From Isurus oxyrinchus (Eukaryota), in contig JANJGN010000088.1 in assembly GCA_026770705.1 (NCBI GenBank), positions 930,001 through 994,000 of the forward strand: 64,000 bases of DNA. Direction: 5' to 3'. The translations under genes and the position numbers were made by a program. Numbering within the stretch: the stretch's first letter is position 1; each line of letters begins with the position of its first letter. Of this stretch, positions 10,255 through 44,579 are shown in pieces. Below the pieces are notes generated by a model. That model was not told the DNA's origin. It saw only the letters and a program-made list of their open reading frames with translations, and ran no database searches.

Positions 10255-10895
10255 GAGGAATTCACTCATACATGGAGCTGGGAATATACTCCAATATCTG
10301 CCCTTGGGTATATTCCCCAGTAACTGGGGAATTCACTCATACATGGGGCTGGGAATATTCTCCAATATCTGGTCCCTGTTTATATTCCCCAGTAACTGGG
10401 GGTTTCACTCATACATGGAGCTGGGAATATCCTCCAATATCTGCCCTTGGGCATATTCCCCAGTAACTGAGGAATTCACTCATACATGGGGCTGGGAATA
10501 TTCTCCAATATCTGCCCTTGGGCATATTCCCCAGTAACTGGGGGGATTCATTCATATATGGGGCTGGGAATATTCTCCAATATCTGCCCTTGGGTATATT
10601 CCCCAGTAACTGGGGGGATTCACTCATCCATGGGGCTGGGAATATCCTCCAATATCTGGTCCCTGGTTTCATTGCCCAGTAACTGGGGAATTCATTCATA
10701 CATGGAGCTAGGAATATCCTCCAATATCTGGTCCCTGGTTATATTGCCCAGTAACTGGGGGATTCACTCATACAGGGGGCTTGGAATATACTCCAATATC
10801 TGCCCTTTGGTATATTCCCCAGTAACTGGGGGATTCACTCATACATGGGGCTGGGAATAGCCTCCAATATCTGGCCCTCGGTATATTTGCCCAAT
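10255..10895. repeat. Minisatellite, about 70-72 bp unit; degenerate copies also at about 330-650 and 7900-9750
   Basis: Repeated ttcactcatacatggggctgggaatattctccaatatctgcccttgggtatattccccagtaactgggg, about 9 copies. Confidence 0.9.
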
Positions 10896-10967: not shown

Positions 10968-10973
10968 TTTATT
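10968..10973 (-). terminator. Likely original membrane-form poly(A) signal
   Basis: AATAAA about 425 nt after the TM2b stop, just outside the duplicated unit. Confidence 0.55.
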
Positions 10974-11396
10974 GATTTAATTTCAAAACAAATCTTTAAT
11001 ATCAGTGAAAGCATTTTTGAAAAAGCTGCAGGCAGTAATCTGAACAACATTTGTGTTAAGAATACTTTACACAAAACCCAGAGAATCAGCCCTTCCCTCC
11101 TTCCCAGAGTCAGACTCCCTCCTGACTCCCCCTTCCCTAATCCCCCATTCCCATTTCCCCTGCTCCCTATTCCCGCTCCCCTCTCTCCTTCCAAACTCAC
11201 CCCTCCCATCCCAATTCCCCTTCCCAATCTTCCCCAGTCCATTTGAAGTTTTATCTCCCAGAATGAGCTGTTGCAGTGCAGTAGCTGAGTATTTTCCAGT
11301 GTGCGATGGAAAGCTCCATTCCCAAACATCACAGGGATATTTCTGGACAATTCACATCTTGTATAAGTCTGAATGTGAGCTGCATGTGCCTGCTGG

Positions 11397-11408
11397 TCAC
11401 TGCTGAAT
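11397..11408 (-). CDS. IgW: IgW TM2 exon, copy b (IQQ*)
   Basis: ttttaaag|ATT CAG CAG TGA, paralogous to TM2a. Confidence 0.62.
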   Translation of the reverse strand: MQQ

Positions 11409-12064
11409 CTTTAAAATAAACAGCGGAGTAAGATACATGTGTGTGCCAATCATATATCAGGTGGTATCACCCAAAAAGCCAGGTAGTCTGTCTGTCTGTT
11501 AGGAAATGGACCCCAAATGACAGGGGATTTGTCCTTATTCTGGGGGATGGACCCTAAAGCAAAAGGGGTCTGTCCTTATTCTGGGAGACGAAGCCTGCAA
11601 AATGAATTCTTCTTTGTGCTCCAGACCGTGATTATTGAGGATGCTGTTCTTCAGGGTCACAGTTACTGTCATGTGTTTCCCAAGGTTAAATGTCATGTAA
11701 CCCAACAGAACAAACTGCCCTTGTTCTTGGAGACAGGGGCCTAAAGGACAAGTGGTCTAATTAAATTCTGGGCAGTGGATGCAAAAGGAGAGGTGGTCTG
11801 ACCCTATTCTGGGGCATGGGGCCTTAAGGACAGGTTGTCTGACCCTGTTCAGGGACATGGGCCGAAAGGACAGGGAATCTGACCTTCTGGGGTGAATCAA
11901 GACCCTCAGATCAGGTAAAGAGAAAATCTTCAAGGTGCCAGTGGCTGTGAAAGGTTCCCCACTGCGCTGACCGTCTGCACCCAGTCTGATATCTGGAATC
12001 TCAGAGTCAGATAATAAGATGTAGCAATAAATTGTTGTTCGTTTGATAGTTAAAGTCTGGTTAC

Positions 12065-12207
12065 CTTGACAACAGTAACAAAGGTGCTGTAGAGGAAACT
12101 TAGAATAAACAGAATGGCGAAGGCAGCAACTGTCAGTGCGTTGTCGTCTCTTTCCAAACCTTCCACTTCTTCCTTTCCTTCCTCTCCTATCACATTTGGA
12201 AGGTCAA
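12065..12207 (-). CDS. IgW: IgW TM1 exon, copy b
   Basis: 143 nt, same as TM1a except LEGDD>LERDD. Splice sites intact. Confidence 0.88.
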
Positions 12208-13559
12208 CTGAAACAAAGAGAAATTGGAGCTGATAAAGATGACACTGGGCATTTCATCAAGGTCCACAATGTCTCAGTTTGAAGATAATAGCGAGGGAGG
12301 AGATCACAGCGGAGGAGCACTGGGAGCTGTGAATAATTGAAAAGGTTTCTCTCGTGACCTGTTGCTCCCCGGTCCTGTCTCCCACTTTTGTCTTTGTCTT
12401 TCTCCCTCTCTCACTGCCTTTCCTCTATCCCTCAGAGATTCTGTCTCCTTGTTTCTGCTTCACTGTCACTCTCAGTATCTCTGTCTGTAACACTTACTGT
12501 TTCTCTCAAATGTGCACAAACAAACAACAGATGATGCTAAAACTGTTTCCAAAACCTGTTCTTCGGTCACCCCAGTTGTTTCCCCATTTCTCTATCGTAT
12601 TATCCAATCTACCAGCTCAAACACAAGTTTCCGACTCCTTGGCTCCAAAAACACTCTAATCCGCAAACAAACCATTGATTGTGAAGTGCCCTGAGATTAT
12701 CCCCATCGCCAGGGTGAGATTTTTAATGACTTCAAATATTTATTTCTTTTTGATGCTCTGCTTCTATAACATTTTAATCAATCTAATAGTTCCTGAGGCA
12801 GCATTAAATGAACTTGTGTAGTCACCACGTACAACAACTGATCAATGGCACAAATTCTTGTGAGTGGTGATGTGAGCGAGTGAGACACCAAATGGGATCT
12901 GAAAGTCTGCGATTCATGGATTACTGTGATGTGGTTTTGTGCATCGCAATCTCACCCCTGGATCAGAAAATTGTGGGTTCAAGTTCCACTCCAGATACTT
13001 GAGTGCATAATTCAGGCCGACACTGTGATGCAGGACTGAGAAAGTGCTGCTGTGCAGGAGGTGCCGCCTTTCAAATGAGGCATTAAACGATGGCCCTCAG
13101 GTTGATGTGAACTTGTAAATGGTCCCACAGCACAATTGGAAGAAGAGCAGGGGAGTACTCTGCAATGTTCTGAGCCAGCCAACATTTATCCCTCAACCAA
13201 AACACCTAAAACCAGATGATCTGGTCATTATCACAGTTCGTATGGTGGGAATTACTGTGCGCAAATTGGAACTGGTAAACCAAGAAAGACCAAAGCCATC
13301 CTGATGTTCGGATGATACAAGGATAATGGAGTTGTGCACTAATCATAGCAACCAGTCTCTTATCAATTAGTCCACAATAAACCCAGACAGGAGGCGAGGT
13401 AAGCTCAATGGTTGGAGCATTGGAAACCATAGGTCCAAGGACCCCTGTTCCTCACAAGCATGTTACACTCACCGTACATCATGTTCGAAGATACTCATTT
13501 ACTGTCTCCCGAAACACAACAACAATGAACACTCAAAACTGAAACCTTTTCACATTATG

Positions 13560-13565
13560 TTTATT
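13560..13565 (-). terminator. Poly(A) signal after TM2a (duplicated copy of the secretory poly(A) site)
   Basis: AATAAA in a context matching 17025-17030. Confidence 0.6.
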
Positions 13566-13986
13566 GAAAATGGATCAGTACATTGACATTTTGCCACATA
13601 CGAAACACTTTTGAAAAAGCGGCAGGCAGTAATCTGAACATTTGTTTTGAGAATATTTTGCTCAAGACCCAGTGAATCAGCCCATCCCTCCTTCCCATAT
13701 CCACACTCTCTCCTGATGCCCCCTCCCTGACTCTCCCATTCCCATCTCCCCTGCTCCCCATTTCCACACCCCTCTCACCTTCCTAATGCGTCCCTCCCAT
13801 CCCAATTCCCCTTCCCAATCTTTCCCAGTCTATTTGAAGTTTTATCTCCCAGAATGAGCTGTTGCAGTGCAGTAGCTGAGTATTTTCCAGTGTGCGATGG
13901 AAAGCTTCACTCCCAACATCACAGGGATATCTCTGGACAATTCACATCTTGGATAAGTCTGAATGTGAGCCGCATGTATCTGCTGG

Positions 13987-13998
13987 TCACTGCTGAAC
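13987..13998 (-). CDS. IgW: IgW TM2 exon, copy a (VQQ*)
   Basis: tattacag|GTT CAG CAG TGA, phase 0 matching TM1; gives cytoplasmic KVQQ. Confidence 0.72.
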   Translation of the reverse strand, partial: VQQ

Positions 13999-14469
13999 CT
14001 GTAATATAAACAGCAGAGTAAGATACTTGTGTGTGCCATAGTCGATCTATCAGGTGGTATAACCCAAAAAGCCAGGTGGTCTGTCTGCCTATTAGGAAAT
14101 GGACCCTAAAGGACAGGTGATTTGAACTTATTCTGGGACCCAAAAGCAAAAGGGGTCTGTCCTTATTCTGCGAGATGGGCCCTGAAGGACAGGGGGTGGG
14201 ATTTCCTGGCCCCAACTGCCCCGGGATTGTCTAGTCCCGCCGAAGGTCTGTGGAGCTTTGGCTGGGCCACTTCAACTTCCGCGGCGGGTTCCACCATAGC
14301 GGAGCTGGACAATTCTGTCCGGGTATCTGTCCTTATTCTGGGAAATGACACCTGCAGAGTGAGTTCTTCCTTGTGCTCGGGGCCATGATTATTGAGGATT
14401 CAGTTGTTCTGGGTTGCAGTCATTGTCTTGTGTTTCCCAAGGTTAAATGTAGTGTAATCCAACAGAACA

Positions 14470-15340
14470 AACTGTCCATGTTTTTGGAGATGGGGGCCTA
14501 AAGGACAAGTGGTCCAATCTTATTCTTAGAGGTGGATGCTGAAGGAGAGCTGGTCTGTTCCTATTCTGTGACATGCGGCCTTAAGGAGAGGATGTCCGAC
14601 TCTATTCTGGGACATGGGGCCTTAAGGAGAGGTTGTCCGACTCTATTCTGGGACATCATATCTAAAGAAGAGGTGGTCTGACCATATTCTGGGACATGGG
14701 ACCTAAAGGAGAAGGAGTCTGACCATATGCTGGGAGATGGACCCTAAAGGACAGGCTGTCTGACCTCATTCTGGGACATGGGGAGTGAGTGGGCTGTCCT
14801 ACGGGGAAAGGTTGGACAGACTGGGCTTGTTTCCACTGGAGTTTAGAAGAGTGAGGGGTGATTTGATTGAAGTATACAAGATCCTGAACAGCCTTGACAA
14901 GGTGCATGTGGAAAGGATGTTTCCTCTTGTGGGTGAGATCTGAACAGGGGGGCACTGTTTTAACATTAGGGGTCCACCTTTTCGGGCAGAGATGAGGAGA
15001 AATTTTTTCTTGGATGGGTGTGCAACTTTGGAATTCTCTGCCTCAGTTGGTGGTGGAGGCGGGGTCATTGAATATTTTTAAGGCAGAAGTAGATAGATTC
15101 TTGTTAGGCAAGGGCATCAAAGGTTATTGGGGTTAGATCAGAATGTGGAAATCGAAACACAAGAAGATCAGCCATGATCTTATTGAATGGCGCAGCAGGT
15201 TCGATGGGCCAAATGGTCTACTCCTGTTCCTATTTCTTATGTTCTTATTCTGGGACATGGGGCCTTATGGAGAGGTGGTCTGTCCGTATTCTGGGACATG
15301 GGGCCTAAAGGACATGGAATCTGACCTTCTTCTGGGGTGA
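14470..15340. repeat. Degenerate ~40-bp repeat interrupted by a CR1 3' fragment (about 14790-15245)
   Basis: Repeated tattctgggacatggggcctaaaggagaggtggtctgacc. The CR1 piece is absent from the paralogous region at 11700-11900. Confidence 0.7.
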
Positions 15341-15544
15341 ATCAAGACCCTCAGATCAGGTAAAGAGAAAATCTTCAAGGTGCCAGTGGCTGTGAAAGGT
15401 TCCCCACTGTGCTGTCCGTCTGCACCCAGTCTGGTAGCTGGAATCTCAGAGTCAGATAATAAGATGTGGCGATAAATTGAAGATAAATCGTGACTTTACA
15501 GTATGGGTACGTTGTTGTTCGTTTGATAGTTAAAGTCTGGTTAC

Positions 15545-15687
15545 CTTGACAACAGTAACAAAGGTGCTGTAGAGGAAACTTAGAATAAACAGAATGGCGA
15601 AGGCAGCAACTGTCAGTGCGTTGTCGTCTCCTTCCAAACCTTCCACTTCTTCCTTTCCTTCCTCTCCTATCACATTTGGAAGGTCAA
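15545..15687 (-). CDS. IgW: IgW TM1 exon, copy a
   Basis: 143 nt, ttcag acceptor, AAG|gtaa donor: (V)DLPNVIGEEGKEEVEGLEGDDNALTVAAFAILFILSFLYSTFVTVVK. Acidic spacer plus antigen-receptor TM (CART) motif with YST. Confidence 0.92.
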
Positions 15688-17024
15688 CTGAAACAAAGAG
15701 AAATTGGAGCTGATAAAGATGACACTGGGCATTTCATCAAGGTCCACAATGTCTCAGTTTGAAGATAATAGCGAGGGAGGAGATCACAACGGAGGATCAC
15801 TGGGAGCTGTGAATAATTGAAAAGTCTTTCTCTCTTGACCTGTCGCACCCCGGTCCTGTCTCCCACTTTGTCTTTGTCTTTCTCCCTCTCTCAATGCCTT
15901 TCCTCTATCCCTCAGAGATTCTGTCCCCTTGTTTCTGCTTCACTGTCATTCTCAGTTTCTCTTTCTGTAACACTTGCTGTTTCCCTCAAATGTGCACAAA
16001 CAACAGATGATGCTAAAACTGTTTCCAAAATCTCAGTCCTTCAGTCACCCCATTTCTCTATCGTATTATCCAACCTACCAGCTCAAACACAAGTTTCTGA
16101 CTCCTTGGCTCCAAAAACACTCTAATCCGCAAACAAACCATTGATTGTGAAGCGCCCTGAGATTATCCCCATCGCCAGGGTGAGATTCTTAGTAACTTCA
16201 AATATTTACTTCTTTTTGAATCTCTGCTTCTATAACATTTTAATCAACCTAACAGTTCCTGAGGCAGCATTAAATGAACTTGTGTAGTCACCAGGTACAA
16301 CAACTGCTCAATGGCACAAATTCTTGTGAGTGGTGATGTGAGCGAGTGAGACACCAAATGGGATCTGAAAGTCTGCGATTCATGGATTACCGTGATGTGG
16401 TTTTGTGCATCGCAATCTCACCCCGGATCAGAAAATTGTGGGTTCAAGTTCCACTCCAGATACTTGAGTGCATAATTCAGGCTGACATTCCAATGCAGGA
16501 CTGAGAAAGTGCTGCACTGTAGAAGGTGCCGCCTTTCAAATAAGGCATTAAACAATGGCATTGAGGTTGATGTAAACTTGTAAATGGTCCCACAGCACAA
16601 TTGGAAGAAGAGCAGGGGAGTACTCTGCAATGTTCTGAGCCAGCCAACATTTATCCCTCAACCAAAACACCTAAAACCAGATGATCTGGTCATTATCACA
16701 GTTTGTATGGTGGGAATTACTGTGCGCAAATTGGAACTGGTAAACCAAGATAGACCAAAGCCATCCTGATGTTCGGATGAAACAAGGATAATGGAGTTGT
16801 GCACTAATCATAGCAACCAGTCTCTTATCAATTAGTCCACAATAAACCCAGACAGGAGGCGAGGTAAGCCCAATGGTGGGAGCATTGGAAACCATAGGTC
16901 CAAGGACCCCTGTTCCTCACAAGCATGTTACACTCACCGTACATCATGTCCGAAGATACTCATTCACTGTCTCCCGAAACACAACAATAATGAACACTCA
17001 AAACTGAAACCTTTTCACATTATG

Positions 17025-17030
17025 TTTATT
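17025..17030 (-). terminator. Poly(A) signal of the long secretory form
   Basis: AATAAA about 330 nt after the stop codon, followed by GT/T-rich sequence. Confidence 0.7.
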
Positions 17031-17362
17031 GAAAATGGATCAGTACATTGACATCTTGCCACATACAATGAACCCTTCTTGGGGTCTCACACAGGTTTCA
17101 CACTTGGTCAAATGCAGCACAAAAAACGCTTGAAAACCAACTCAGGACTTCAGATGTTTGGAGAGAACGATGTTTGTTGTAGGATCAGATGGTTAAATTT
17201 AAATAATTTCTTTCTCAGTTATTGAACAAGGTCAGATTTTGTTCACATTTTCTAGTGATCTGCGACAAAAAGCGAGATTTCATAGCAACCATGACAATCC
17301 TCTGGTTGTCTTAACCATCCATTTACAGGGATTATGTAAATGGGTGATTGAATCATTAGATG

Positions 17363-17745
17363 CTATGAACAGGATTTGAAGCCTTCAGTTAGAACAAGTG
17401 ACACATTGACCAGGGTGGGTTTGCTGTGAGATTTATTGATGCTCCTGAACAGACTTGTTGTGACTGACTCGTGTCCCACCACACAGGAGTAAGTGGTGCC
17501 GCTGTTCCACTCGTCTGCGGAGACTGTCAACTGACTGCCCGAGTTCCAGCCACTTCTGCCATCCTCGGTCACCGGCTGGTTCACAAATCCTGACTTCAGA
17601 AGGGTGTCGTTGGCCATCCAGGCCAGGTAGATCTCTGCAGGGGAGAATCCGGTGACCAGGCAAACCAGGGTCGCGGTGTGGTCTGTCTCCATCTCATCTT
17701 GCGAAGGGGGAAGGAGGTAGACTTGAGGGTGAGTCTTAATGTCAA
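17363..17745 (-). CDS. IgW: IgW CH6-type terminal exon (10th C domain) with canonical secretory tailpiece
   Basis: (V)DIKTHPQVYLLPPSQDE...TLVCLVTGFSPAEIYLAW...YSCVVGHES...NKSHSKPTLVNVSLVLTEGFKSCS*. NVS sequon and penultimate Cys. Confidence 0.94.
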
Positions 17746-18812: not shown

Positions 18813-19133
18813 CTTGGGCTTTCCTGATTGACCTCTTCTCAGGCGTTGGCAAACTCTTGTCCTCCACCAAACACAAATACTCTACCCCACTCTCCCACTC
18901 TGCAGCAGGGACCATCAGTCTGCTGAAGATCATGTCTTTGTCTCCATTCCTCTTGGGACCCTGAGTCTTCACTCCATCTTCTCTCTTGATTCCATCCGCC
19001 TGCCAGGTTACCCTGACTCCCTCTAAATCACTGTGAAGTACCTCGCAAAGTATAGTCGCTGTCCTGTTCCTCCAGATCTCTTCAAAAGGAGGCTTCCTTA
19101 AGGTGACTGAGATCCCAGTGTCCAAACATTCAT
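18813..19133 (-). CDS. IgW: IgW CH5-type exon (9th C domain)
   Basis: 321 nt: (D)ECLDTGISVTLRKPPFEEIWRNRTATILCEV...YLCLVEDKSLPTPEKRSIRKAQ, donor G|gtacgt. Confidence 0.92.
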
Positions 19134-19981
19134 CTGGGAGAAAAATTATCATTGTTATTTCGTGATTCCCTCACGGGATGTGGACATGGCTTGCAAGGCT
19201 GGCATTTCATGCACATCGCCACATGTACAATAGTGGCTTGTTCGACTCTTTCAGAGGGCAGCTCTGCATCAGCCACATTGGTCTGTGCCTGTAGCCACAT
19301 CTGGGGCAGACAGGGTAAGGACAGCAGGTATCCTTCCCTCAAGGAAGATGAACAAACCTGTTGGGTTTTTAATGACAATCTAACGCCTTCAAGGTCACTT
19401 TACTGATTCTAACTTTTTATTACCAATTTTTACTTTCTGCAACTGAATTCAAATTCTCAAGCTGTCTTAGATTTGAACTCAGTTGTCTGCATTAGTGATT
19501 GTATATGTCAACCTTGGCACGTTGGTAGGGCAAGCTCCTCTACCTGCGATGGTTGTGCGTTCACGACCCACTACGGATACTTGAGCACAAAATCAAGAAT
19601 GACAAACCCCATGCCGATACTGAGGGAATGCGGCACTGTTGGGTATGCCGTCTCTCAGTAAGAGACATTAAGCCACGGCCCCTTCTCAGGCCAGCCAAAG
19701 AGATCACATTGTCGCCAATTTGGAAAAAAAGGGGAGAGGGGCCAAAATTTAACAGATTACCTGGTCTTCATCATAATGCAGTTTATCGGGCCTTGCCTTA
19801 TGCAAATTAGTTGACGCTTTCTTTGCATTGAAACAGTTACGACACCTCAACAAAAGTACTCTTTTGGCTGTGAGGCACATCCTGAGGATGTGAAAGCTAC
19901 AACATTAATGCTATTGTCTCTTTCTTTGTCCAGACCTCTAGAATATTAATCCACTCACATAGTCACTACATAACCACATAC

Positions 19982-20299
19982 CTTGGAAGTTCTTCACCGT
20001 CTCACTGGTGTTGAAGTTGGAGGGTGGATGAGACACTGCACAGGTGAAGTTTAAGCCTTTCCTCCACTCCTCTGCACTCACAGTCAGGTAGTGCCTGACG
20101 CAGAATGTCCCGGCCTGTTCCAGAGCAGTGTGTCCAGTGTGGGCCTTGGAGGAGATCAGAGCACCATCTTTCTCCCAGGTGACATTTATGAGGTCTGGGT
20201 AGAATCCAGTGATCACACACTCGAGTGTGGCTGTGCTCTTACCCTTGATCTCTTCAGTTGGTTGAAACAGCAATCTGACCTTGGGACTTTTTGGCTCGA
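19982..20299 (-). CDS. IgW: IgW CH4-type exon, copy c (8th C domain, more divergent)
   Basis: 318 nt: (V)EPKSPKVRLLFQPTEEIKGKSTATLECVITGFYPD...TFCVRHY...FTCAVSHPPSNFNTSETVKNFQ, donor G|gtatgt. Confidence 0.92.
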
Positions 20300-20389
20300 C
20301 TGGAATAGACAGACAAAACCAAGAAGTTGTTAAATTCCTTCCCTGAAAGTGAACAAAGTTAGTTATGTAATTTCTGATCTCTCACCCAC

Positions 20390-20692
20390 CTTTTACACTC
20401 TTTACCCATTTTGAAATGGGTGAGGATGAGGAACGACTTTGAGCAGAGCACACGAACTCCACCCCGCTGTCCCATTCCTCTGCAGTGGTTCGGAGTCGGC
20501 TGGTGACGATGTATTGGGTCCCTTCCTCTCTCTGTCGCTGGGTTGAAACCCCTTTACTTCGCTCCTGCCCGTTCATGTTCCAGGTGATGCGGACCTGGCT
20601 CGGATTGGAACAGACCACTGTACACACCAGGGTAGCTGTCTTGTTGATCCAAACCTCTTCCATAAGTGGACTTTGGATAAAGACAGATATTT
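20390..20692 (-). CDS. IgW: IgW CH3-type exon, copy c (7th C domain)
   Basis: 303 nt: (E)ISVFIQSPLMEEVWINKTATLVCTVVCS...SPISKWVKSVK. Intact splice sites. Confidence 0.92.
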
Positions 20693-21194
20693 CTGGGAAG
20701 GGGAAATTATACAAATCAGAAGAACGGGCATTAATTAGTATCAGCCACTTGTGGCCTTCAATAGGAATCCAGTTTAATGTGTTTCACCTGGAGCTGCTAA
20801 TCGATCATGCGACACTGCACTTAAATTTTTCAACAAGTTGAACATTAGAAAATCCCAGGGTTGTTTAAAAAATGTCTTGCAATTCTCAGTTTGCAAGTTT
20901 TGACTGAGAAAACATCGTAGGACAACCAAGAACCCACTGGATCCCTTTTGAATCTGTCTGCCCTTACCGTGACCAAGAGATCCACAGTGAGGACTGCAGT
21001 TGAGTTGTGGGGTGAGTGGCTTTTAGATGCGACAATGTTACTAACAATGCAATCTCTGGTTTGTGAAATGGAGTGAAACAGAGATACAAACTGCTTAGCA
21101 AAAGGAACAATTCAGTAAATGCTTTTTCACTGCGTGGGGCTGTGGAATGATTTTTGACATTGAGCACACTGAATGAACGAAGGGCCCATTTCTT

Positions 21195-21600
21195 TTAGCT
21201 GCGGCTCAGTTGATAGCACGCTCACCTCCAAATCAGAACGTTGTGGATTCATGTCCCACAAAACTCAAAGCTGATGCCCCAGTGCAATACTGAGGGAGTG
21301 CTGCACTGTCAGAGCACTGCCTTTTGGATGAGAATTGAAAATGAGGCGCCAAATGCCGGCTTAGGTAGGTGTAAAAGAAGGACATCAGGGAAGCTCGTTC
21401 CAATACCCTGATCAGTATATATCCCTCACTCAACATCACAAAAACAGGATCCCTGGTTATTGTCACATTACTCTTTGTGGGAACTTGCTGTGTGTAAATT
21501 GGCTGCTGTGTTTCCAACTTTAGAACAGTGGCTGCACTTCAAAAGTACTTCATTTTGGCATGTCCTGTGGTCACGAAAGATGACATGTAAATGTGAGCCT
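21195..21600 (+). mobile_element. tRNA-derived SINE-like element (paralogue at about 28022-28425; related copies at about 12950-13270 and 16415-16735)
   Basis: ggctcagttgatagcac A-box-like start, gtggattcatgtccca B-box-like motif, shared core with other copies. Confidence 0.55.
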
Positions 21601-23304
21601 TTCTTTACTTTTCTTCCTCTAATTGGAGCTGGCCTGGATCACATCAGTTTTAAAATTCTTATCCTAATGTTCACGGCTTCACCTCTCCCTATCCCTGTAA
21701 CCTTCTCCAGCCCTACAGCCGCCCAGAAACTCTGCACAACTCTAGACACTTGTACATCCTTATCTTCCTTTCCCCCTGCATTGGTGGCTGTGTCTTCAGC
21801 CGTCTAGGCCCTAATGCCTGGAATTCACTGCCTAAACCTCAGCCACCTGCCACCTCTCTCCTCATTTGAGGTGCTGCATAAAACCTCTCTATTTTGCCAA
21901 GATTTTGGCCACAAGATCTCCTCCTGGAGGCTCAGCATCAGTTTTGCTTTGGCTTTGGTCCTGTGAAGCACCTTGGGATGTTTTACTACATTAAAGTCTC
22001 TATATCGATTCAAGTTATCATTGGTGATCATTCCCTGTCAAAGAAGGTTAGTTTTCATTGGCAGAGCAACTCCCATGAATCAGGGGAGTAACAGAAGTCC
22101 CCTCTTCCTGCAGGTTGGTGATCATTTCTGCATAACACGGACTTCCCCTCATTTCATTCCGGAGTTTACTGGCCTGGGAAGGGAATGATTGATTGAATTC
22201 TTCACACTTTCTCCTTGGTGCTCAACTCCCATGGATCGCAACCTTTTCAGATATCCCGCAGCTCACTGCGTGTTCTGTATACTGTTAACACAGACACACA
22301 CGCATATACACACAGACACACACATGCACACACACATTCACTGCGTGAATCACAACTGCTTTGATCCACACTAATTGTTCTCTCACGATGTAATGTTAAC
22401 ACTTACAGAGTGACTGGATTACTCCATCTGTGTCCATATCAAAACCTGTCATGAACACCACATATTGACTCTTCCGGCTGCAGTTTCAGCTGATGTTCAG
22501 TGTCTGTCTAATAGGACTGTGTCTTTTATTAGGTTATTTATTCTGTTTCTCTCTCTCTTGCCTTTTAAACAAAACCTTGATCAATTTCCTTCCAGATTGG
22601 GATTGCTCAATATATTAATGATTAAGTCTAGGTGTTTTTCACGTTGATCTCCCATCATAAAACCTCATAGGGTTGGGAACAATCCCCTTATCACTGTAAA
22701 ATAATAACATTATTGGGCAAGAGGTGTTTAATTCCATTTACCCTTTGTGCGGAATTTTGAAAAAACACTTCCCTGCCTTGGATTCCTGTGAACATTGAGC
22801 TCCTGACATTGACTGAGATGAGTATCCAGATTGGGAGAGTGATGGGAACTGTTTCTATTTCTGCAACCCAGAATTTCATTTAAAACAGACCAGGCCATTC
22901 AGGACACCAGTTAAATCCTTGTGTGCTGAATCACCAACTTGCCTCAGGATCATTGAAGGGGGCCAATCCGGCTATTTCACTGGATCAATGAGTCCTACTC
23001 CAGCACCTCCCAACCTCCTGGCCTCTCTGGGTGACAAACAGGCTTCTAATCCTTTCCAACTTGAGAGTCAGACTTGAGAGACAATGGTCAGTCGGTGGGG
23101 TCGGGTCCCTATTCACTCTGACCCAGCGCAGGTCACAAAGAAATGACCATTCAGATAAGGAGTGGGTTGTCTGGGGGAACCCAACCTAGGGCTGTAACTT
23201 CTCGCAGTATTCACACTTTCATTCTGACGGATACCCTGGGATACATTTGAACCTGCCAGATGGTTTGTAATAAAATTCAGCGACCAATTCCATTCACAAA
23301 CTCA

Positions 23305-23462
23305 TCACTTTATTTCACATTTTTGTTGGTAGCAGTCATATTGGAGCTGATCACCATTTTTGAGGGTCACATTGAGGTTAGTCTGGTAGAGAAACTTCGG
23401 CATACAGTCAGAACAAGAACAAGGAGAACTTGGAACTGGACGACATGCGTTTCCACCTGGAA
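23305..23462 (-). CDS. IgW: Cys-rich secretory tail exon T3 (copy of T1)
   Basis: 158 nt: (V)PGGNACRPVPSSPCSCSDCMPKFLYQTNLNVTLKNGDQLQYDCYQQKCEIK*. 6 Cys; acceptor and overlapping AATAAA intact. Confidence 0.85.
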
Positions 23463-23835
23463 CTGGAAGAGTTGCAGATTTAAGTGTTATGCATTTTCAC
23501 CTCCCCTCCCCTCTACTGGGGAAGTGGGAGCTCCATGCAGCCCCTGGCCTCTGCTCTGTCCTGTCTTCTAAAGATCCTAAAAGAACTAGATCATGTAGAC
23601 ACTGACAAGCTGTTTTTACCTTGTCCAGAACAGTAAAATCAGTGGGTATGGCCTCTGTTTGAAGGGGGCAGGATGAACAATCGTTCTTTCTTTACTTGGC
23701 CTCTAGATTACTCGTCCACCTAGGTAATAACTACATCACCACACCGACGTTGTGAGGTTTGAATTTGCCTGGCCCCAAGAGAATTTATATGAGAAGACCA
23801 TGATGTCAATATTGGAATCAGGCCCAGGACCTTAC

Positions 23836-24153
23836 CTGGGACATTTTTCACCTCCTTGCTGATGACGAAGTTGGAAAGTGGATGAGACACTGTACAGCTG
23901 AAGGCTGATCCTGTCCTCCACTCCTCTGCACTCACAGTCAGGTAGTGCCTGACATTGAAGGTCCCTGCCTGTTCCAGAGCGGTGAGTCCAGCATGGGTGT
24001 TGGAGGAGATCGGAACACCATCTTTCTGCCAGGAGACGTGTAAGAGCTCCGGGTAGAATCCAGTGATCACACACTCGAGTGTGGCTGTGCTCTGGTTCTT
24101 GACCTCTTGGGCTGGGGGAGGCAGCAGCCTGACCTTGGGACTTTTTGGCTCGA
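23836..24153 (-). CDS. IgW: IgW CH4-type exon, copy b (6th C domain)
   Basis: 318 nt, nearly identical to CH4a (DGVP vs DGAP). Intact splice sites. Confidence 0.92.
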
Positions 24154-24243
24154 CTGGAATAGACAGGCAAAACAAAGAAGCTGTTAAATTCCTTCCCTGA
24201 AAGTGAACAAAGTTAGTTATGTAATTTCTGATCTCTCACCCAC

Positions 24244-24546
24244 CTTTTACACTCTTTGCCCGTTTTGAAATGGGTGAGGATGAGGAACCACTTTGAGCAG
24301 AGCACACGAACTCCACCCCGCTGTCCCATTCCTCTGCAGTGGTTCGGAGTCGGCTGGTGACGATGTATTGGGTTCCTTCCTCTCTCTGTCGCTGGGTTGA
24401 AACCCCTTTACTTCGCTCCTGCCCGTTCATGTTCCAGGTGATGCGGACTTGGCTCGGATCTGAACAGACTACTTTACACACCAGGGTAGCAGTCTTGTTG
24501 ATCCAAACCTCTTCAACAGAAGGATTTTGGATAAAAACTGACATTT
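24244..24546 (-). CDS. IgW: IgW CH3-type exon, copy b (5th C domain)
   Basis: 303 nt: (E)MSVFIQNPSVEEVWINKTATLVCKVVCSD...KRAKSVK. Intact splice sites. Confidence 0.92.
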
Positions 24547-26258
24547 CTGGGAAGCAGAAAGTGAAAACTTTAGAAGGATTGACGTTATTTGGTGTTGGCA
24601 GGCTTCAGAATTTTAGGGTGGTGTCTCCCTACTGATGTTGGTGGATGATAGGTCAACACAGAAGTGACTTTAAACTGCCACCTGTTTTAATCTCTTGAGT
24701 TGATACTGGGTGAAATACACAGCATTTAAGTTTGCAGCAAACTGAGCCTTTAGAAAATCCAAGGGTCGCTTTAGCAATGTCTAGCAATTCTTGACTCGCA
24801 TGTTATGATTGAGAAAACATAATCAGAGCACTAAGAACCTGCCGTATCCATTTTGAATTTGTTTGCTGTGCCTGTGACCAATAGGCCCACAGTGAGGAGT
24901 GCAAATTGCATTCTAGGACTGAGCAACATTTAGATGTGACACTGTGAATCAATTGCAAAGCCCAGTTTGTTAAATGGAGTGAGGCAGATGCAGATCGCTT
25001 AGCAATGGAAACAATTGAATAAAGGCTTATTTACTTACAGCCCCTCCACCTCCCCGCTGTTGTATGGTTGATTTGTGACATTGAACAGATTGAATCAATG
25101 AGTTGCCCTTTTTGGAGACAGCCTTGGATTGCCTCCATTTCAAAATCCTTATCCTAGTGTTGACATCTCGCTGGCCTTGCCTCTCCATATCTCTGTCACA
25201 TTTGCCAGCCCAATAACCGTCTGAAAATGCTGCTTTCCACCAACATTAACCTCTTGTACACCCCACACTCCCTTCGCCCTAACAGTAGCAGCTGTCCATC
25301 AGCCATCTAGACCCTGCTCTGTGTAAGTCTATCCCTGAATCACAATTACATGGCCAACCCTCTCTCCTCCTTTAAGACGCTCCATAAAAACGACCTCTGC
25401 CCCCGCCTCCTCCTTTGGTTCTTTATCAATTTCTGTCCGATTACTCTCCAATGCAGAACTTTAGACCTCTGTCCACACTAAAGGTGATATATAAAAGCAG
25501 GTTATTGTAGATAAGTCTCTGTGAAGATAGATGATTAGTGTGCAGTGGCAGAGCAAGCCACAAATCAGATGTAGTGACAGCTCCTTTGCTGGAGCTCGGG
25601 GATAATTTATGCAAAACGTTTACATCCCATCTCCAGTTTCATGTCCAAGAGACTAGATAAAAAGCAAATGTTTTACCGAGTACTTCATACGTTTTCCCCA
25701 TTGCCAGCAGTTTCCCAAAAGACCATTGTCACTTCAGATATCCCGCAGCTCACTGCGTGTTCTGAACACTATTCACGCGCACAAACACACATTCACTGTG
25801 CGAATCACAACACTTCTCCCTCTATATAATGAACAGTAGACACTTGGGTATGATGGGAAGGATGACAATTACTGCATCAGGATCAAATCCTTTCATGAGC
25901 TTCGAGAACCAACTCCTCCGGCTGCAGTTTCAGATGATGTCCTGTACACAGGGTGGTGGGATTTTCCAATGGCCATTTGGGTGGCTCGCCACATCTGCTG
26001 CAGAGGGACCCACTGCAGTGGAGCCAGAAAATCCTGGCCAGTGTCTGACAAGACCCTATCTTTCATTAACTTGAGATGGGTGAACGGAAGAGTTTATCAC
26101 TTCTGCTGCCATGGATTTCCATCCAGAACCTACCGGATTGTACAGGAGCCAGATGGAACCCTGCAGCCGGTCTCAGCGGTTTGCCTCAGGACCAGAATCA
26201 TTGAAATGGGACAGCCTTCTTTTACTGGATCAACGCGATTCAATTCACAACCAGCCCA

Positions 26259-26437
26259 TCATCGAATTTCACACATTTGTTGACAACATTTATACTGGCA
26301 TGGATCAGCATCAGAGAAGGTCATGTTACAGTTAATCTGATATAGGAACCTCAGCATCCAGCCAGAACAAGAATCAGTCAGACAAGAGCAAGCAGCATTT
26401 CCACCCGGAACAGGAAGATTTGTGTTTCCACCTAGAA
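26259..26437 (-). CDS. IgW: Divergent Cys-rich secretory tail exon T2
   Basis: ccag acceptor, phase 1, open frame: (V)LGGNTNLPVPGGNAACSCLTDSCSGWMLRFLYQINCNMTFSDADPCQYKCCQQMCEIR*. Clearly homologous to T1. Confidence 0.78.
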
Positions 26438-26809
26438 CTGGAAGAGCTGCGGATTTAAGTGTTATGCATTTTCACCTCCCCTCCCCTCTACTGGGGAAGT
26501 GGGAGCTCCATGCAGCCCCTGGCCTCTGCTCTGTCCTGTCTTCTAAAGATCCTAAAAGAACTAGATCATGTAGACACTGACAAGCTGTTGTTACCTTGTC
26601 CAGAACAGTAAAATCAGTGGGAATGGCCTCTGTTTGAAGGGGGCAGGATGAACAATCGTTCTTTCTTTACTTGGCCTCTAGATTACTCGTCCACCTAGGT
26701 AATAACTACATCACCACACCTACGTTGTGAGTTTGAATTTGCCTGGCCCCAAGAGAATTTATATGAGAAGACCATGATGTCAATATTGGAATCAGGCCCA
26801 GGACCTTAC

Positions 26810-27127
26810 CTGGGACATTCTTCACCTCCTTGCTGATGACGAAGTTGGAAAGTGGATGAGACACTGTACAGCTGAAGGCTGATCCTGTCCTCCACTCCTC
26901 TGCACTCACAGTCAGGTAGTGCCTGACATTGAAAGTCCCTGCCTGTTCCAGAGCGGTGAGTCCAGCGTGGGTGTTGGAGGAGATTGGAGCACCATCTTTC
27001 TGCCAGGAGACGTGTAAGAGCTCCGGGTAGAATCCAGTGATCACACACTCGAGTGTGGCTGTGCTCTGATTCTTGACCTCTTGGGCTGGTGGAGGCAGCA
27101 GCCTGACCTTGGGACTTTTTGGCTCGA
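26810..27127 (-). CDS. IgW: IgW CH4-type exon, copy a (4th C domain)
   Basis: 318 nt: (V)EPKSPKVRLLPPPAQEVKNQSTATLECVITGFYPE...FSCTVSHPLSNFVISKEVKNVP, donor G|gtaagg. Confidence 0.92.
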
Positions 27128-27216
27128 CTGGAATAAACAGGCAAAACAAAGAAGCTGTTAAATTCCTTCCCTGAAAGTGAACAAAGTTAGTTATGTAATT
27201 TCTATCTCTCACCCAC

Positions 27217-27519
27217 CTTTTACACTCTTTGCCCGTTTTGAAATGGGTGAGGATGAGGAACCACTTTGAGCAGAGCACACGAACTCCACCCCGCTGTCCC
27301 ATTCCTCTGCAGTGGTTCGGAGTCGGCTGGTGATGATGTATTGTGTTCCTTCCTCTCTCTGTCGCTGGGTTGAAACCCCTTTACTTCGCTCCTGCCCGTT
27401 CATGTTCCAGGTGATGCGGACCTGGCTCGGATTGGAACAGACCACTTTACACACCAGGGTAGCTGTCTTGTTGATCCAAACCTCTTCCATAAGTGGACTT
27501 TGGATAAAGACAGATATTT
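27217..27519 (-). CDS. IgW: IgW CH3-type exon, copy a (3rd C domain)
   Basis: 303 nt: (E)ISVFIQSPLMEEVWINKTATLVCKVVCS...EFVCSAQSGSSSSPISKRAKSVK, donor G|gtgggt. Confidence 0.92.
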
Positions 27520-30123
27520 CTGGGAAGGGGAAATTATACAAATCAGAAGAACGGGCATTATTTAGTATCAGCCACTTGTGGCCTTCAATCGGAACCCAGT
27601 TTAATGTGTTTCACCTGGAGCTGCTAATCGATCATGCGACACTGCACCTAAATATTTTAACAAGTTGAACATTAGAAAATCCCAGGGTTGTTTAAAAAAT
27701 GTCTTGCAATTCTCAGTTTGCAGGTTTTGACTGAGAAAACATCGTAGGACAACCAAGAACCCACTGGATCCCTTTTGAATCTGTCTGCCCTTACCATGAC
27801 CAAGAGATCCACAGTGAGGACTGCAGTTGAGTTGTGGGGTGAGTGGCTTTTTGATGCGACAATGTTACTAACAATGCAATCTCTGGTTTGTGAAATGGAG
27901 TGAAACAGAGATACAAACTGCTTAGCAAAAGGAACAATTCAGTAAATGCTTTTTCACTGCGCGGGGCTGTGGAATGATTTTTGACATTGAGCACACTGAA
28001 TGAACGAAGGGCCCATTTCTTTTAGCTGCGGCTCAGTTGGTAGCACGCTCACCTCCAAATCAGAACGTTGTGGATTCATGTCCCACAAAACTCAAAGTTG
28101 ATGCCCCAGTGCAATACTGAGGGAGTGCTGCACTGTCGGAGCACTGCCTTTTGGATGAGAATTGAAAATGAGGCGCCACATGCTGCCTTAGGTAGGCGTA
28201 AAAGAAGGACATCAGGGAAGCTTGTTCCAATACCCTGATCAGTATATATCCCTCACTCAACATCACAAAAACAGGATCCCTGGTTATTGTCACATTACTC
28301 TTTGTGGGGACTTGCTGTGTGTAAATTGGCTGCTGTGTTTCCAACTTTACATCAGTGGCTGCACTTCAAAAGTACTTCATTTTGGCATGTCCTGTGGTCA
28401 CGAAAGATGACATGTAAATGTGAGCCTTTCTTTACTTTTCTTCCTCTAATTGGAGCTGGCCTGGATCACATCAGTTTTAAAATTCTTATCCTAATGTTCA
28501 CGGCTTCACCTCTCCCTATCTCTGTAACCTTCTCCAGCCCTACAGCCGCCCAGAAACTCTGCACAACTCTTGTACATCTTTATCTTCCTTTCCCCCTGCA
28601 TTGGTGGCTGTGTCTTCAACCGTCTAGGCCCTAATGCCTGGAATTCACTGCCTAAACCTCAGCCACCTGCCACCTCTCTCCTCATTTGAGATGCTGCTTA
28701 AAACCTCTCTATTTTGCCAAGATTTTGGCCACAAGATCTCCTCCTGGAGGCTCAGCATCAGTTTTGCTTTGGCTTTGGTCCTGTGAAGCACCTTGGGATG
28801 TTTTACTACATTAAAGTCTCTATATCAATTCAAGTTATCATTGGTGATCATTCCCTGTCAAAGAAGGTTAGTTTGCATTGGCAGAGCAACTCCCATGAAT
28901 CAGGGGAGTAACAGAAGTCCCCTCTTCCTGCAGGTTGGGGATCATTTCTGCATAACAAGGACTTCCCCTCATTTCATTCCGGAGTTTACTGGCCTGGGAA
29001 GGGAATGATTGATTGAATTCTTCACATTTTCTCCTTGGTGCTCAACTCCCACTGATCACAATCTCTTCAGATATCCCGCAGCTCACTGCGTGTTCTGTAT
29101 ATTGTTAACACAGACACACACGCATATACACACAGACACACACATGCACACACACATTCACTGCGTGAACCACAACTGCTTTGATCCTCACTATTTGTTC
29201 TGTCTCGATTTAATGTTAACACTTACAGAGTGACTGGATTACTCCATCTGTGTCCATATCAAAACCTGTCATGAACACCACATATTAAGTCTTCCGGCTG
29301 CAGTTTTAGCTGATGTTCAGTGTCTGTCTAATAGGACTGTGTCTTTTATTAGGTTATTTATTCTGTTTCTCTCTCTCTTGCCTTTCAAACAAAACGTTGA
29401 TCAATTTCCTTCCAGATTGGGATTGCTCAATATATTAATGATTAAGTCTAGGTGTTTTTCACGTTGATCTCCCATCATAAAACCTCATAGGGTTGGGAAC
29501 AATCCCCTTATCACTGTAAAATAATAACATTATTGGGCAAGAGGTGTTTAATTCCATTTACCCTTTGTGCGGAATTTTGAAAAAACACTTCCCCGACTGG
29601 AATTCCTGTGAACATTGAGCTCCTGACATTGACTGAGATGAGTATCCAGATTGGGAGAGTGATGGGAACTGTTTCTATTTCTGCAACCCAGAATTTCATC
29701 TAAAACAGACCAGGCCATTCAGGGCACCAGTTAAATCCTTGTGTGCTGAATCACCAACTTGCCTCAGGATCAATGAAGGGGGCCAATCCAGCCATTTCAC
29801 TGGATCAATGAGTCCCACTCCAGCACTTCCCAACCTCCCGGCCTCTCTGGGTGACAAACAGGCTTCTAATCCTTTCCAACTTGAGTCAGACTTGAGAGAC
29901 AATGGTCAATCGGTGGGGTCGGGTCCCTATTCACTCTGACCCAGCGCAGGTCACAAAAAAAATGACCATTTAGATCAGGAGTGGTTTGTCTGGGGGAACC
30001 CAAACTCGGGCTGTAACTTCTTGCAGTATTCACACTTTCATTCTGACGGATACCCTAGGATAGATTTGAACCTGCCAGATGGTTTGTAATAAAATTCAAT
30101 GGCCAATTCCATTCACAAACTCA

Positions 30124-33826: not shown

Positions 33827-34014
33827 CTGAAATATAAATAGTTTCACACAGATAAGCCTAGTAAAGAAACACATACAAATATATGAACTAGGAGCAGGAG
33901 TGGGCCTTTTGGCCCTTTTGGCCCTGCTCTGCCATTTGATAATGGCTGATCTGATTGCAGCCTCAATCTACTTTCCTGTCTACCCTCTTTCACCTTTGAC
34001 TCCCTTGTTACTCA

Positions 34015-42146: not shown

Positions 42147-42194
42147 CTGAAGTCACTTCCAGGAAGGTTCCACTCCCCCAGTAATCAAGATAGT
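42147..42194 (-). CDS. IgW: JH segment (YLDYWGSGTFLEVTS)
   Basis: WGxG motif, donor G|gtaaga, preceded by a 23-RSS. Confidence 0.95.
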
Positions 42195-42233
42195 CACTGT
42201 GCTCCATCTCCTCATTGACCCAATACAATAACT
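42195..42233 (-). promoter_or_regulatory. JH 5' RSS, 23-bp spacer
   Basis: CACTGTG (42195-42201), 23 nt spacer, ACAATAACT (42225-42233). Confidence 0.92.
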
Positions 42234-42570
42234 GAACTTGTCCACGATATGTAATAATCTCAGGGTAATGTAAACATAAACTGTGTTTTAACCTGGAACA
42301 GCGTTTCCTGTATCTTAATCTGAAATTCCATCCTAAACCTGTTCCAAATGTATGAATAAATGAAGCATTTTTGCAGTTTTCTTGTGCGCGGACACCAGCT
42401 CCTGCACATTACCAACAAACAGAATCGCCTCCTTTTTGTCTTTTATGTTCCCTGAAATCAACATTTTCCTCCAACAACCCGAGTCAGTGTTTAAATATTT
42501 CACTCTGGGAAACACGAATGTGGAATCCATGGACACAGACTCTGATACACATGGTCATTTGTAGTGAGGG

Positions 42571-42635
42571 AGTTTCTGTCAAGCTCTCTACTGCTGTGGT
42601 TCCATATCACAGTGCTTCACCCCAGATCATAAACC
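42571..42635 (-). other. IgW: D3 segment (ATATGGAAC, 42599-42607) with 12/12 RSS
   Basis: CACAGTG-12-TCATAAACC on the V-facing side; CACAGCA-12-ACAGAAACT on the J-facing side. Confidence 0.88.
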
Positions 42636-42974
42636 ATGGGTATAAGATCCAACCTGAAATAAACTGTCCCAAACAAGCAGCCAGTAGTTTTATTAACTCC
42701 TCAGTCTGTATTCGTGTGTCCCCCATGCACCAGGTGGCAAACTCAGGGTTTTCCAGGACTTTACAGGAAGATGAGATAATCCACAAGGAGTTTTCATTGT
42801 TCTTCATCCTCTCTCTGTTACTCACTGTTCTTTCACCTTTCAAATATCATCTTCAAAGAAAGTTGTTCACACAGCCAGATTATTTAATCGGGATCTGATT
42901 TATATCCACGGGTCAGGAGGTAAAGGTCGGTGATATCGCCCAAAGGGTCCAGTTTAAATAGTTTTCCTGTGACA

Positions 42975-43056
42975 GGTTTTTGAATGGAGGGATCCCCCGT
43001 CTCTCTCACTGTGTCACTCCAGTATAGACACTGTGATCCACACCCGTACATTAACC
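42975..43056 (-). other. IgW: D2 segment (TCTATACTGGAGTGA, 43014-43028) with 5' 12-RSS and 3' 23-RSS; paralogue of D1
   Basis: Heptamers at 43029-43035 and 43007-43013. Same nonamers and spacer lengths as D1, near-identical flanks. Confidence 0.93.
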
Positions 43057-43700
43057 TCCTCCCCTTTCACTGTCACTGAGCCCAGTCACTTCACATTTAA
43101 ACCACACTGACACTGCTACAAGTGAGCAGTCCTGCTCTCGGATTCACACTGACGATGGTTTGGGATGTGATGTTTCAGTGGTTCTGTTACTGGATCAGTG
43201 ATCTGAAGGCCTGGGTTTAATTATCCAGAGAATCCTGAGTTCAATCCCTCTGTGGTAATCTGGGAATTTCGCTTTAAAAATCTGGGGAAAATGCTGGGAT
43301 CAGTAAAAGTGACCATGAAGCTGTTGGATTGTCATAAAAAAACCAACTGGTTCACCCTTGTCTTGAATGAAAGGAAATCCGGTCTAGTCTATAGGTGACT
43401 CCAGTCTCACACTCAATGTGGTTGACTCTTACCTGCCCTCTGAAGGGGTCATTGAGGCTCTCGGTTACCATCATCTTCTCAGGGTAACGAGGGATGGGGA
43501 ACAAATGTCAGACTTGACAGTGACCTCTTCACCCTACAGCTGTTACTCACTCTTGTTTCTGTCTTTCAAATAACATCTTCAAAGAAAGTTGTTCACACAG
43601 CCAGATTATTTAATTGGGATCTGATTTATATCCACGGGTCAGGAGGTAAAGGTCGGTGCTATCGCCCAAAGGGTCCAGTTTAAATAGTTTTCCTGTGACA

Positions 43701-43781
43701 GGTTTTTGAATGGAGGGATCCCCCATCTCTCTCACTGTGCCACGTAGTATAGACACTGTGATCCACACCCGTACATTAACC
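43701..43781 (-). other. IgW: D1 segment (TCTATACTACGTGG, 43740-43753) with 5' 12-RSS and 3' 23-RSS
   Basis: Heptamers at 43754-43760 and 43733-43739. Nonamers ACATTAACC (12 spacer) and TCAAAAACC (23 spacer). Confidence 0.93.
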
Positions 43782-44130
43782 TCCTCCCCTTTCACTGTCA
43801 CTGAGCCCAGTCACTTCACATTTAAACCACACTGACACTGCTACAAGTGAGCAGTCCTGCTCTCGGATTCACACTGACGATGGTTTGGGATGCGGTGTTA
43901 CAGTTTATAGAGATTTTTTTAAACGTGTCCCGAGCCCGAGTTTCTGTCGGCTCCCAGGTTTCCCATCACATCTCCAGCCCAGGAATCCCCAGCGAATAGT
44001 CCCATTCCCATTTCCGGGGGAAGGCAGATCCCAACACAATCAGGATGGGAATAAAGCTGTGCTGATAACTGAGGGTGAGCGATCATTCCTCCCCTTTCAC
44101 TCACTCCCCTGACTGCAGATTCTCTCACTG

Positions 44131-44169
44131 AGTTTTTGTCCCAGTCCAGCCCTGCTTCCTCTCACTGTG
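44131..44169 (-). promoter_or_regulatory. VH 3' recombination signal sequence, 23-bp spacer
   Basis: CACAGTG (44169-44163), 23 nt spacer, ACAAAAACT (44139-44131). Confidence 0.95.
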
Positions 44170-44467
44170 TCCCTCGCACAATAATAGATGGCGGTGTCAT
44201 CCGCTCTCAGATTAGGAATCTTAATGGAGGTTGTGGAAGATTCAGTTGAAAACGTAAATCGACCCTGAACTCCAGGTGCGTAGTAAGTGCTATATCCTTG
44301 GCTGTAAGCAAGTAACCATTCCAGCCCTTTTCCGGGGACCTGTTTCACCCAGCTCATGTAGTAGCTGTTGATATTGTACCCACTCACTGTACAGGACAGT
44401 GTGACAGAGTCCCCCGGCTTTTTCACAGCTGATTTGGGCTGGGTCAGCACGATAGCGGACCAGACAC
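44170..44467 (-). CDS. IgW: IgW VH exon, germline and unrearranged
   Basis: ag acceptor then (G)VWSAIVLTQPKSAVKKPGDSVTLSCTVSGYNINSYYMSWVKQVPGKGLEWLLAYSQGYSTYYAPGVQGRFTFSTESSTTSIKIPNLRADDTAIYYCAR. Conserved C, W, GLEW and YYCAR motifs. Has a conventional FR2/CDR2, so not a VNAR. Confidence 0.95.
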
Positions 44468-44579
44468 CTGTTAATAAAAGAGAAAAAGAAGTTAATAAAC
44501 CCGTTGCACAAAGAGAGGGTCAAAGAGTCTCTGAATAAGCAGCCGCACTGTGTGGGGATAAAGCCACAGGACCCCTCAC

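Follow-up and report, generated by a model that had tools for sequence, protein, structure and literature searches.

Tandem transmembrane exon cassettes in an IgW heavy-chain cluster of the shark Isurus oxyrinchus

IgW, the cartilaginous-fish orthologue of IgD, is known from the nurse shark, the spiny dogfish and, as IgX, the skate. Known IgW genes have six to eight constant (C) exons and give two membrane forms by alternative splicing (PMC5192425, PMC4279169, PMC6795676). Tandem duplication of C exons has been described for coelacanth IgW1, sturgeon IgD and nurse shark UrIg2, and gene conversion has been proposed for UrIg2 (PMC5192425, PMC12227049). In mammalian IgM, the secretory polyadenylation (polyA) site is followed by the transmembrane (TM) exons TM1 and TM2 and then by the membrane polyA site; the secretory site is weak and is strengthened on B-cell differentiation (PMC2874999). 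We analysed 64,000 nt of the Isurus oxyrinchus genome (contig JANJGN010000088.1 of assembly GCA_026770705.1, positions 930,001 to 994,000; hereafter the window), which contains a shark IgW heavy-chain cluster on the minus strand. Like known IgW, the cluster has variable, diversity and joining segments in the order V-D-D-J with recombination signal sequences (RSS), followed by C exons of the six basic C1-set types. Its secretory tail is also on the last C exon, and TM1 and TM2 appear to be spliced from an internal C exon. To our knowledge, immunoglobulin heavy-chain (IgH) genes normally carry one TM cassette, and we found no counter-example in the literature searched. The window cluster has two in tandem. 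No precedent for a doubled TM1-TM2 pair was found in that literature, where a mention in primary shark IgW papers or their supplements is possible, and its doubling in IgW is probably unreported.

The two TM1-TM2 cassettes and their genomic setting

As a preliminary description of this sequence had reported, the window contains two complete TM1+TM2 cassettes in tandem, here called a and b (Table 1), with open frames and GT/AG at all exon ends. The TM1 copies differ, as also described, at one of 143 positions (G at 15631 and A at 12151 on the gene strand), which gives a G>R replacement, and the TM2 coding parts differ at one of 12 (V>I). Both cassettes encode the same membrane helix, and their tails are distinguished by V>I alone; b thus brings neither a distinct membrane segment nor a signalling tail of its own. 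The duplicated stretch was found to exceed the interval 10968-15687 described at first, with a running from 17066 to 13602 and b from 13601 to 11009. Chance similarity is excluded because the collinear alignment of a and b extends over 2.6 kb at 82-93% identity.

Two insertions distinguish the TM1a-TM2a intron from that of b. The shorter, of 170 nt, had been called a miniature inverted-repeat transposable element (MITE)-like insert. Its presence in a and absence from b were borne out, and its repeat is dispersed, 37 of the 40 scored being further matches of 73-84% identity. At the offsets tried, a search for 16-nt terminal inverted repeats with at least ten matches found none, and the MITE label is tentative. 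The longer is the 3' fragment of a long interspersed nuclear element (LINE), which we take to be of CR1 type partly from its reverse-transcriptase C-terminal motif. This piece had been described as found only in a; it is absent from b, but a single-cassette cluster elsewhere on the contig has it, and it was therefore rejected as an a-specific mark.

A genome search with TM1 gave eight matches, every one on the contig of the window. Searching with the C6 protein gave five matches at 97-100% identity, the next tier being at 61-62%. The contig carries five IgW clusters: A (ten C exons, two TM cassettes), B (eight, one), W, which is the cluster of the window (ten, two), D (six, one) and E (ten, two). 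The usual layout with one TM cassette was thus seen in B and D and not in W, A and E. A 561-nt query spanning the a/b junction found full-length matches at W, A and E only (100, 96 and 96% identity). W is 96-98% identical to A and E (about 3% diverged), and a is 86-96% identical to b. Clusters A and E lie in inverted orientation to each other and share 99.3-99.9% identity over 50 kb (about 492-542 kb and 1255-1305 kb of the contig), which points either to an inverted duplication of very recent date or to one made by the assembly. Because a and b are 4-14% apart yet have the same junction in clusters about 3% apart, misassembly is unlikely and the tandem duplication, as judged from the assembly, is real.

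The duplicated unit starts 36 nt before the secretory AATAAA and stops 35 nt before the membrane-form AATAAA. This placement leaves unit a without the native membrane signal and puts a secretory-type copy 422 nt past its stop. The microhomology at the junction was read by eye. The breakpoints (17066, 13601 and 11009) lie 35-36 nt upstream of the two polyA signals of the gene, and the predicted untranslated region (UTR) of TM2a is of near-native length; this position could reflect misalignment of two polyA regions or a survival bias.

Divergence and homogenisation of the copies

The preliminary description had contrasted conserved exons with diverged introns and had suggested that both cassettes are maintained or homogenised. 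Upstream of TM1, a and b differ at 48 of 1178 positions (4.1%). The TM1-TM2 intron differs at 79 of 650 and the 3'UTR at 43 of 384, together 122 of 1034 (11.8%), and the 5' and 3' halves differ significantly in divergence (Fisher p = 8e-12). The contrast between exon and intron therefore holds downstream of TM1, but not upstream, where the intron is only 4.1% diverged and its last 100 nt are identical. These 100 intronic nt (15688-15787 and 12208-12307) were invariant in all eight genomic copies, with 0 of 100 variable columns just before TM1 compared to 108 of 1261 further upstream. TM1 itself varied at 4 of 143 columns across the eight copies, and five sites are common to a and b within one locus. 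A contig from a related organism has two listed differences (12228 and 12300) in the same 100-nt stretch, which argues that the stretch is not frozen across organisms and that conversion is the simpler cause. Collectively, the near-identity of TM1 in all eight copies and the invariant intron suggest gene conversion among clusters. Homogenisation thus fits the 4.1 and 11.8% halves, the five shared sites and the invariant 100 nt. Maintenance of both cassettes is not supported, since TM1a is as close to the TM1 of single-cassette clusters B and D (1/143) as it is to TM1b, and the replacements are in b only.

Between orthologous copies, 23/1490 and 15/385 differences were counted for a against a, and 19/656 and 5/388 for b against b. 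In the tree of the 3' half, the three a copies form one clade (support 100/100) and the three b copies another (100/99), which groups with B and D. This indicates that the tandem is older than the split of W from A/E. The base of the 5'-half tree was not resolved (support 36/10), and that tree does not give the order of events. The 3' half holds 91 fixed sites diagnostic for a or b. At these sites cluster B is a mosaic, with 35 of a type and 53 of b type; it has the CR1 piece and lacks the 170-nt insert. As estimated from sequence divergence, the a-type 3' half would be older than the differences between whole clusters (3-6%). Such an age would call either for an ancient duplication followed by loss or conversion in B and D, or for import from a more distant cluster.

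The replacements among the eight genomic copies all occur in b: G>R in W only, V>M in A and E only, and V>I in every b copy. All three silent changes are in a or single copies (the a copies of A and E, B and D, and TM2 of B). The replacement-to-silent ratio is 3:0 in b and 0:3 elsewhere, a weak contrast (Fisher p = 0.10). The G>R site is G in 9/9 homologous proteins from four shark and ray genera, and the V>I site is V in eight of the nine (A in one, never I). Two of the changes in b thus hit residues conserved in outgroups, and copy a retains the residues of other sharks (EGDD and KVQQ). LEGDD and LERDD had been proposed as markers of the two cassettes; this was rejected, since LEGDD occurs in both cassettes of each of the remaining double clusters. 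Splice acceptors usually read YAG/G, and that of TM2b departs from this at -3 and +1, being AAG/A where all five copies of the other type have CAG/G. The changes at 11415, 11411 and 11408 are common to the three b copies. Since B and D have VQQ with CAG/G, IQQ and AAG/A are derived.

Transcripts and the use of the cassettes

Transcripts were surveyed as assembled contigs, which drop rare forms. Nineteen runs were listed, none recorded as RNA; the survey covered seven of the 13 guessed to be RNA and one of six large unlabelled runs. Four of the surveyed runs (two samples) came from an organism matching the assembly; in run X2, 11/11 checked listed variants occur in cluster B. The related organism is not that of the assembly, as 10 of 18 checked variants (X1) and 4 of 19 (X4) occur in no cluster. 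C5 was joined to C6 at the exon ends in four runs, indicating that those runs contain spliced RNA.

In X3, a run of the matching organism guessed to be RNA, a 145-nt contig (depth 8.7) has no differences to W TM2a and its UTR over 136 nt (13865-14000); the next best copy has three. The first nine letters of the contig do not match the intron. This contig and a second TM2 contig both adjoin a TM1 contig of depth 14.5 and are clipped where TM1 would begin. The second TM2 contig (depth 7.1) has seven differences to W-b, in the number and pattern expected of cluster D. Together, these contigs fit a TM1-TM2a splice, as read from the clip lengths, and cassette a of the window cluster is likely spliced. 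In X5 and X9, TM1 was joined to a cluster-B-type TM2. In the related organism, TM1 was joined to a VQQ exon in three runs and a C4 exon to TM1 in two. The C4 in contigs of X1 and X4 (15690 and 20013) is of the upstream type (like 27128/24154, not 20300), which points to a four-domain membrane form that skips the downstream pairs. In X4, contigs end 15-16 nt past the AATAAA signals at 17030 and 10973, which is compatible with polyA use, although contigs cannot show transcript ends. An X2 piece (13809-13971) considered as a-type was rejected, as it fits cluster B better. Neither IQQ, LERDD nor the b-type UTR was seen among the listed contigs and variants of seven runs. The a copies of A and E were likewise unseen and contigs drop rare forms, so this is no evidence that b is silent.

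These observations are best accounted for if a is the conserved anchor in spliced RNA and b is a redundant passenger, drifting under relaxed selection after a real tandem duplication, and we consider this probable. A junction at the microhomology would have fused the TM 3'UTR with the secretory 3'UTR immediately ahead of the polyA signal of the latter, in a single event that the ancestor of W, A and E had undergone. TM2a would have gained the copied AATAAA at a near-native distance (422 compared to 424 nt). From a C2 or C4 donor, splicing would reach TM1a as the nearest acceptor and go on to TM2a, with cleavage at 13565 terminating the transcript 1.36 kb short of TM1b. Cassette b would be reached only by read-through of two polyA signals and hence be free to drift. 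TM1 and the intron upstream of it are likely kept uniform by gene conversion among the IgW clusters. The 3' half of a, with repeat insertions and the junction as its borders, probably lies beyond the reach of conversion and retains the older divergence. The duplication is likely to have little functional effect. Several points weigh against b being a passenger. TM1a and TM1b differ at 1/143 positions where about six differences were expected from the 5' intron rate (binomial p = 0.018; Fisher p = 0.056), and low TM1 divergence could equally come from selection. In each of the three double clusters, some time of divergence has left TM1b and TM2b with open frames, GT/AG ends and the native polyA signal. 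A and E are almost identical, so that the three amount to two independent double clusters. The contrast between replacement and silent changes is not significant, the polyA role of 13565 is predicted from sequence rather than observed, and the evidence for use of a is one contig from one sample.

If both cassettes are used, they may be chosen by a regulated polyA switch, giving near-identical proteins with different 3'UTRs. Resting B cells, with a weak site, would read through to TM2b from TM1a or TM1b, and activated cells would end on TM2a. We consider this rather unlikely. The duplicated stretch includes the AATAAA and GU-rich downstream sequence, the native membrane polyA signal is only behind b, and b is intact in three clusters. 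The weak secretory site of mammalian IgM is regulated by CstF64, U1A, hnRNP F and ELL2 (PMC2874999). However, that regulation is known from mammalian IgM, and shark IgW splices its TM exons from C2 or C4 rather than from the last C exon. In addition, the TM2b acceptor has moved off YAG/G at both positions, and the contig of the window TM2a is present in X3. Even under such a switch, the proteins would be distinguished by one or two residues, none of them in the membrane helix. Slightly more doubtful is its stage-dependent form, in which resting cells would make b (KIQQ, native UTR) and activated cells a (KVQQ), keeping membrane IgW mRNA under conditions that favour the secreted form. Two functionally different B-cell receptor anchors kept by selection, each with its own C-exon donor, as the preliminary description had envisaged, seem very unlikely. 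Both cassettes are intact, there are four candidate donors (C2 and three C4 exons), and membrane forms with two and four C domains exist in sharks, but these are already described as products of alternative splicing (PMC5192425, PMC4279169). The membrane segment is identical in the two cassettes, V>I is the sole fixed difference and falls in a four-residue tail that lacks a signalling motif, and G>R is private to one cluster. Moreover, the single-cassette clusters B and D are expressed, two runs of the related organism splice C4 to an ordinary LEGDD/VQQ cassette, and no mechanism ties a donor to the distal acceptor.

The remaining alternatives concern the origin of the tandem. The cassettes of two diverged IgW clusters may have been joined by out-of-register recombination, which would alter the history of the locus and not its function; we regard this as improbable. 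Divergence of the a-type 3' half from b, B and D amounts to 11-14%, compared to 3-6% between whole clusters. In a DNA-like run of the relative, two kinds of TM2 region were seen, the a type, which includes the 170-nt insert (depth about 33-35), and the B type (33-39). Two contigs of the relative end at the homologues of 13614 and 11020, beside one of depth 51 that continues into the ordinary flank. Among the contigs listed, this hints that both types lead into that flank and that the a type may stand alone in that organism. However, a stand-alone a-type cluster was not found in the assembly, and an old duplication with later collapse or conversion fits equally, given the a/b mosaic of cluster B. 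A false duplication made by the assembly is extremely unlikely. The locus is multi-copy and A and E are near-identical inverted copies, but the divergence between a and b includes several insertions, their 91 fixed differences in the 3' half are kept, and the window has no N.

The IgW cluster and its comparison with known heavy-chain genes

Six-frame translation and Pfam searches gave the order V-D-D-J, ten C exons and secretory tail, with the C exons arranged as C1, C2, (C3-C4) x3, C5 and C6 (Table 1). The rearranging segments are flanked by 12/23 RSS (44169, 43781, 43739, 43056, 43013 and 42233), J has WGxG, and the cluster has its own C exons downstream, as in IgW. A C1-set match was found in 9/9 scanned C frames. 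In the PDB, C5 best matches 'Novel antigen receptor' 2mkl (E 7e-39), and reviews describe homology between the last IgNAR domains and IgW (PMC4279169, PMC5192425, PMC6795676). The secretory tail, with a penultimate Cys, is on the last C exon as expected of IgW. No GT donor was found in C6 just before this tail, which fits membrane forms having only two or four C domains. A search with the TM1 peptide gave nine matching proteins among 38 candidates, all from sharks or rays. The TM stretch is 73% identical to a protein named IgW transmembrane form and 87-97% identical to other shark immunoglobulin TM stretches, and the shark homologues end in KVQQ. In the PDB, TM1 found weak IgM matches only (E 0.06-0.26) and one unrelated repeat protein.

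Table 1. Features of the IgW cluster in the window, the duplicated region first
Feature	Position	Strand	Remarks
Duplicated unit a	13602..17066	-	Secretory 3'UTR end, polyA signal, intron, TM1a, intron, TM2a, most of TM 3'UTR; from self-BLAST and eight-unit alignment
TM1a exon, 143 nt	15545..15687	-	Acidic spacer with LEGDD, membrane helix ending LYSTFVTVVK; AG/GT
TM2a, coding part	13987..13998	-	VQQ-stop; acceptor CAG/G
CR1-type LINE 3' fragment	14786..15245	+	Inside 41-bp minisatellite of TM1a-TM2a intron; shared by a copies and cluster B, absent from b copies and D
170-nt insert containing dispersed repeat	14168..14337		a copies only
a/b junction	13598..13606	-	7-nt imperfect microhomology (6/7), TM 3'UTR x secretory 3'UTR; same in clusters A and E
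Duplicated AATAAA	13560..13565	-	36 nt past junction, 422 nt after TM2a stop; predicted TM2a polyA signal
Duplicated unit b	11009..13601	-	Secretory polyA region copy, intron, TM1b, intron, TM2b, 3'UTR; runs on into ordinary downstream flank
TM1b exon, 143 nt	12065..12207	-	G>R at 12151, only in window cluster; AG/GT
TM2b, coding part	11397..11408	-	IQQ-stop; acceptor AAG/A
Original membrane-form AATAAA	10968..10973	-	424 nt after TM2b stop; same signal after single TM2 of clusters B and D
Secretory AATAAA	17025..17030	-	335 nt after secretory stop, then GU-rich sequence; likely secretory polyA signal, from its position
C6, last C exon	17363..17745	-	Secretory tail ending CS-stop
C5 exon	18813..19133	-	Spliced to C6 in 4/4 runs examined
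Three C3-C4 pairs	19979..27520 (27520/27128, 24547/24154, 20693/20300)	-	GT donor ends each C4 and could splice to TM1
C1 and C2 exons	C1 about 33830-33510, C2 about 31567-31250	-
V exon, two D segments, J	42147..44470 (V about 44470-44170, J 42194-42147)	-	23/12/23 RSS, V-set domain

The number of C exons differs among the clusters by duplication of the C3-C4 pair (19979-30493 in the window), being ten in W, A and E, eight in B and six in D. The three clusters with ten C exons are the same three that have two TM cassettes. Ten may be a new maximum for shark IgW, for which reviews give six to eight. Ten matches to the C6 exon at 61-62%, on contigs C126, C26, C38, C42 and C100, are probably IgNAR clusters, and more than 100 matches at about 36-44% are probably IgM. 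An extra reverse 12-spacer RSS-like site in the D2-J interval (42635-42600), also present in clusters B and D, is possibly a relic D segment; no matching 3' RSS was found for it. Minisatellites of 72 bp (10235-10887, just after TM2b), 69 bp (34013-34998, before C1), 57 bp (39619-40185, in the J-C1 intron) and 43 bp (44940-45681, before V) are possible recombination-prone sites in a locus for which V-C switching between clusters is reported.

The window cluster departs from known IgW in its ten C exons, its two tandem TM cassettes and the duplication of the secretory polyA signal. Should b be a passenger, the locus illustrates the plasticity of IgW, with five clusters of six, eight or ten C exons and one or two TM cassettes. 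Conversion would then keep exons uniform, and annotators should not take exon identity for selection. The duplication resembles those of coelacanth IgW1, sturgeon IgD and nurse shark UrIg2 in being an internal tandem duplication of an exon block in an immunoglobulin heavy-type gene. In those genes the ectodomain is lengthened, whereas in the window the terminal exons are doubled, so that each mRNA can yield translation of only one cassette. If b is used, the locus tests the control of secretory and membrane polyA sites in cartilaginous fish, with two ends that are separable by their 3'UTRs (11% diverged). If the polyA switch operates, this IgH gene would have two membrane ends, each specific to a stage, and would offer a natural test in sharks of the mammalian switch by polyA competition. 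Compared to mammalian IgM, in which the order of secretory site, TM1, TM2 and membrane site occurs once, the window cluster repeats this order twice and places a secretory-type site after a membrane exon.

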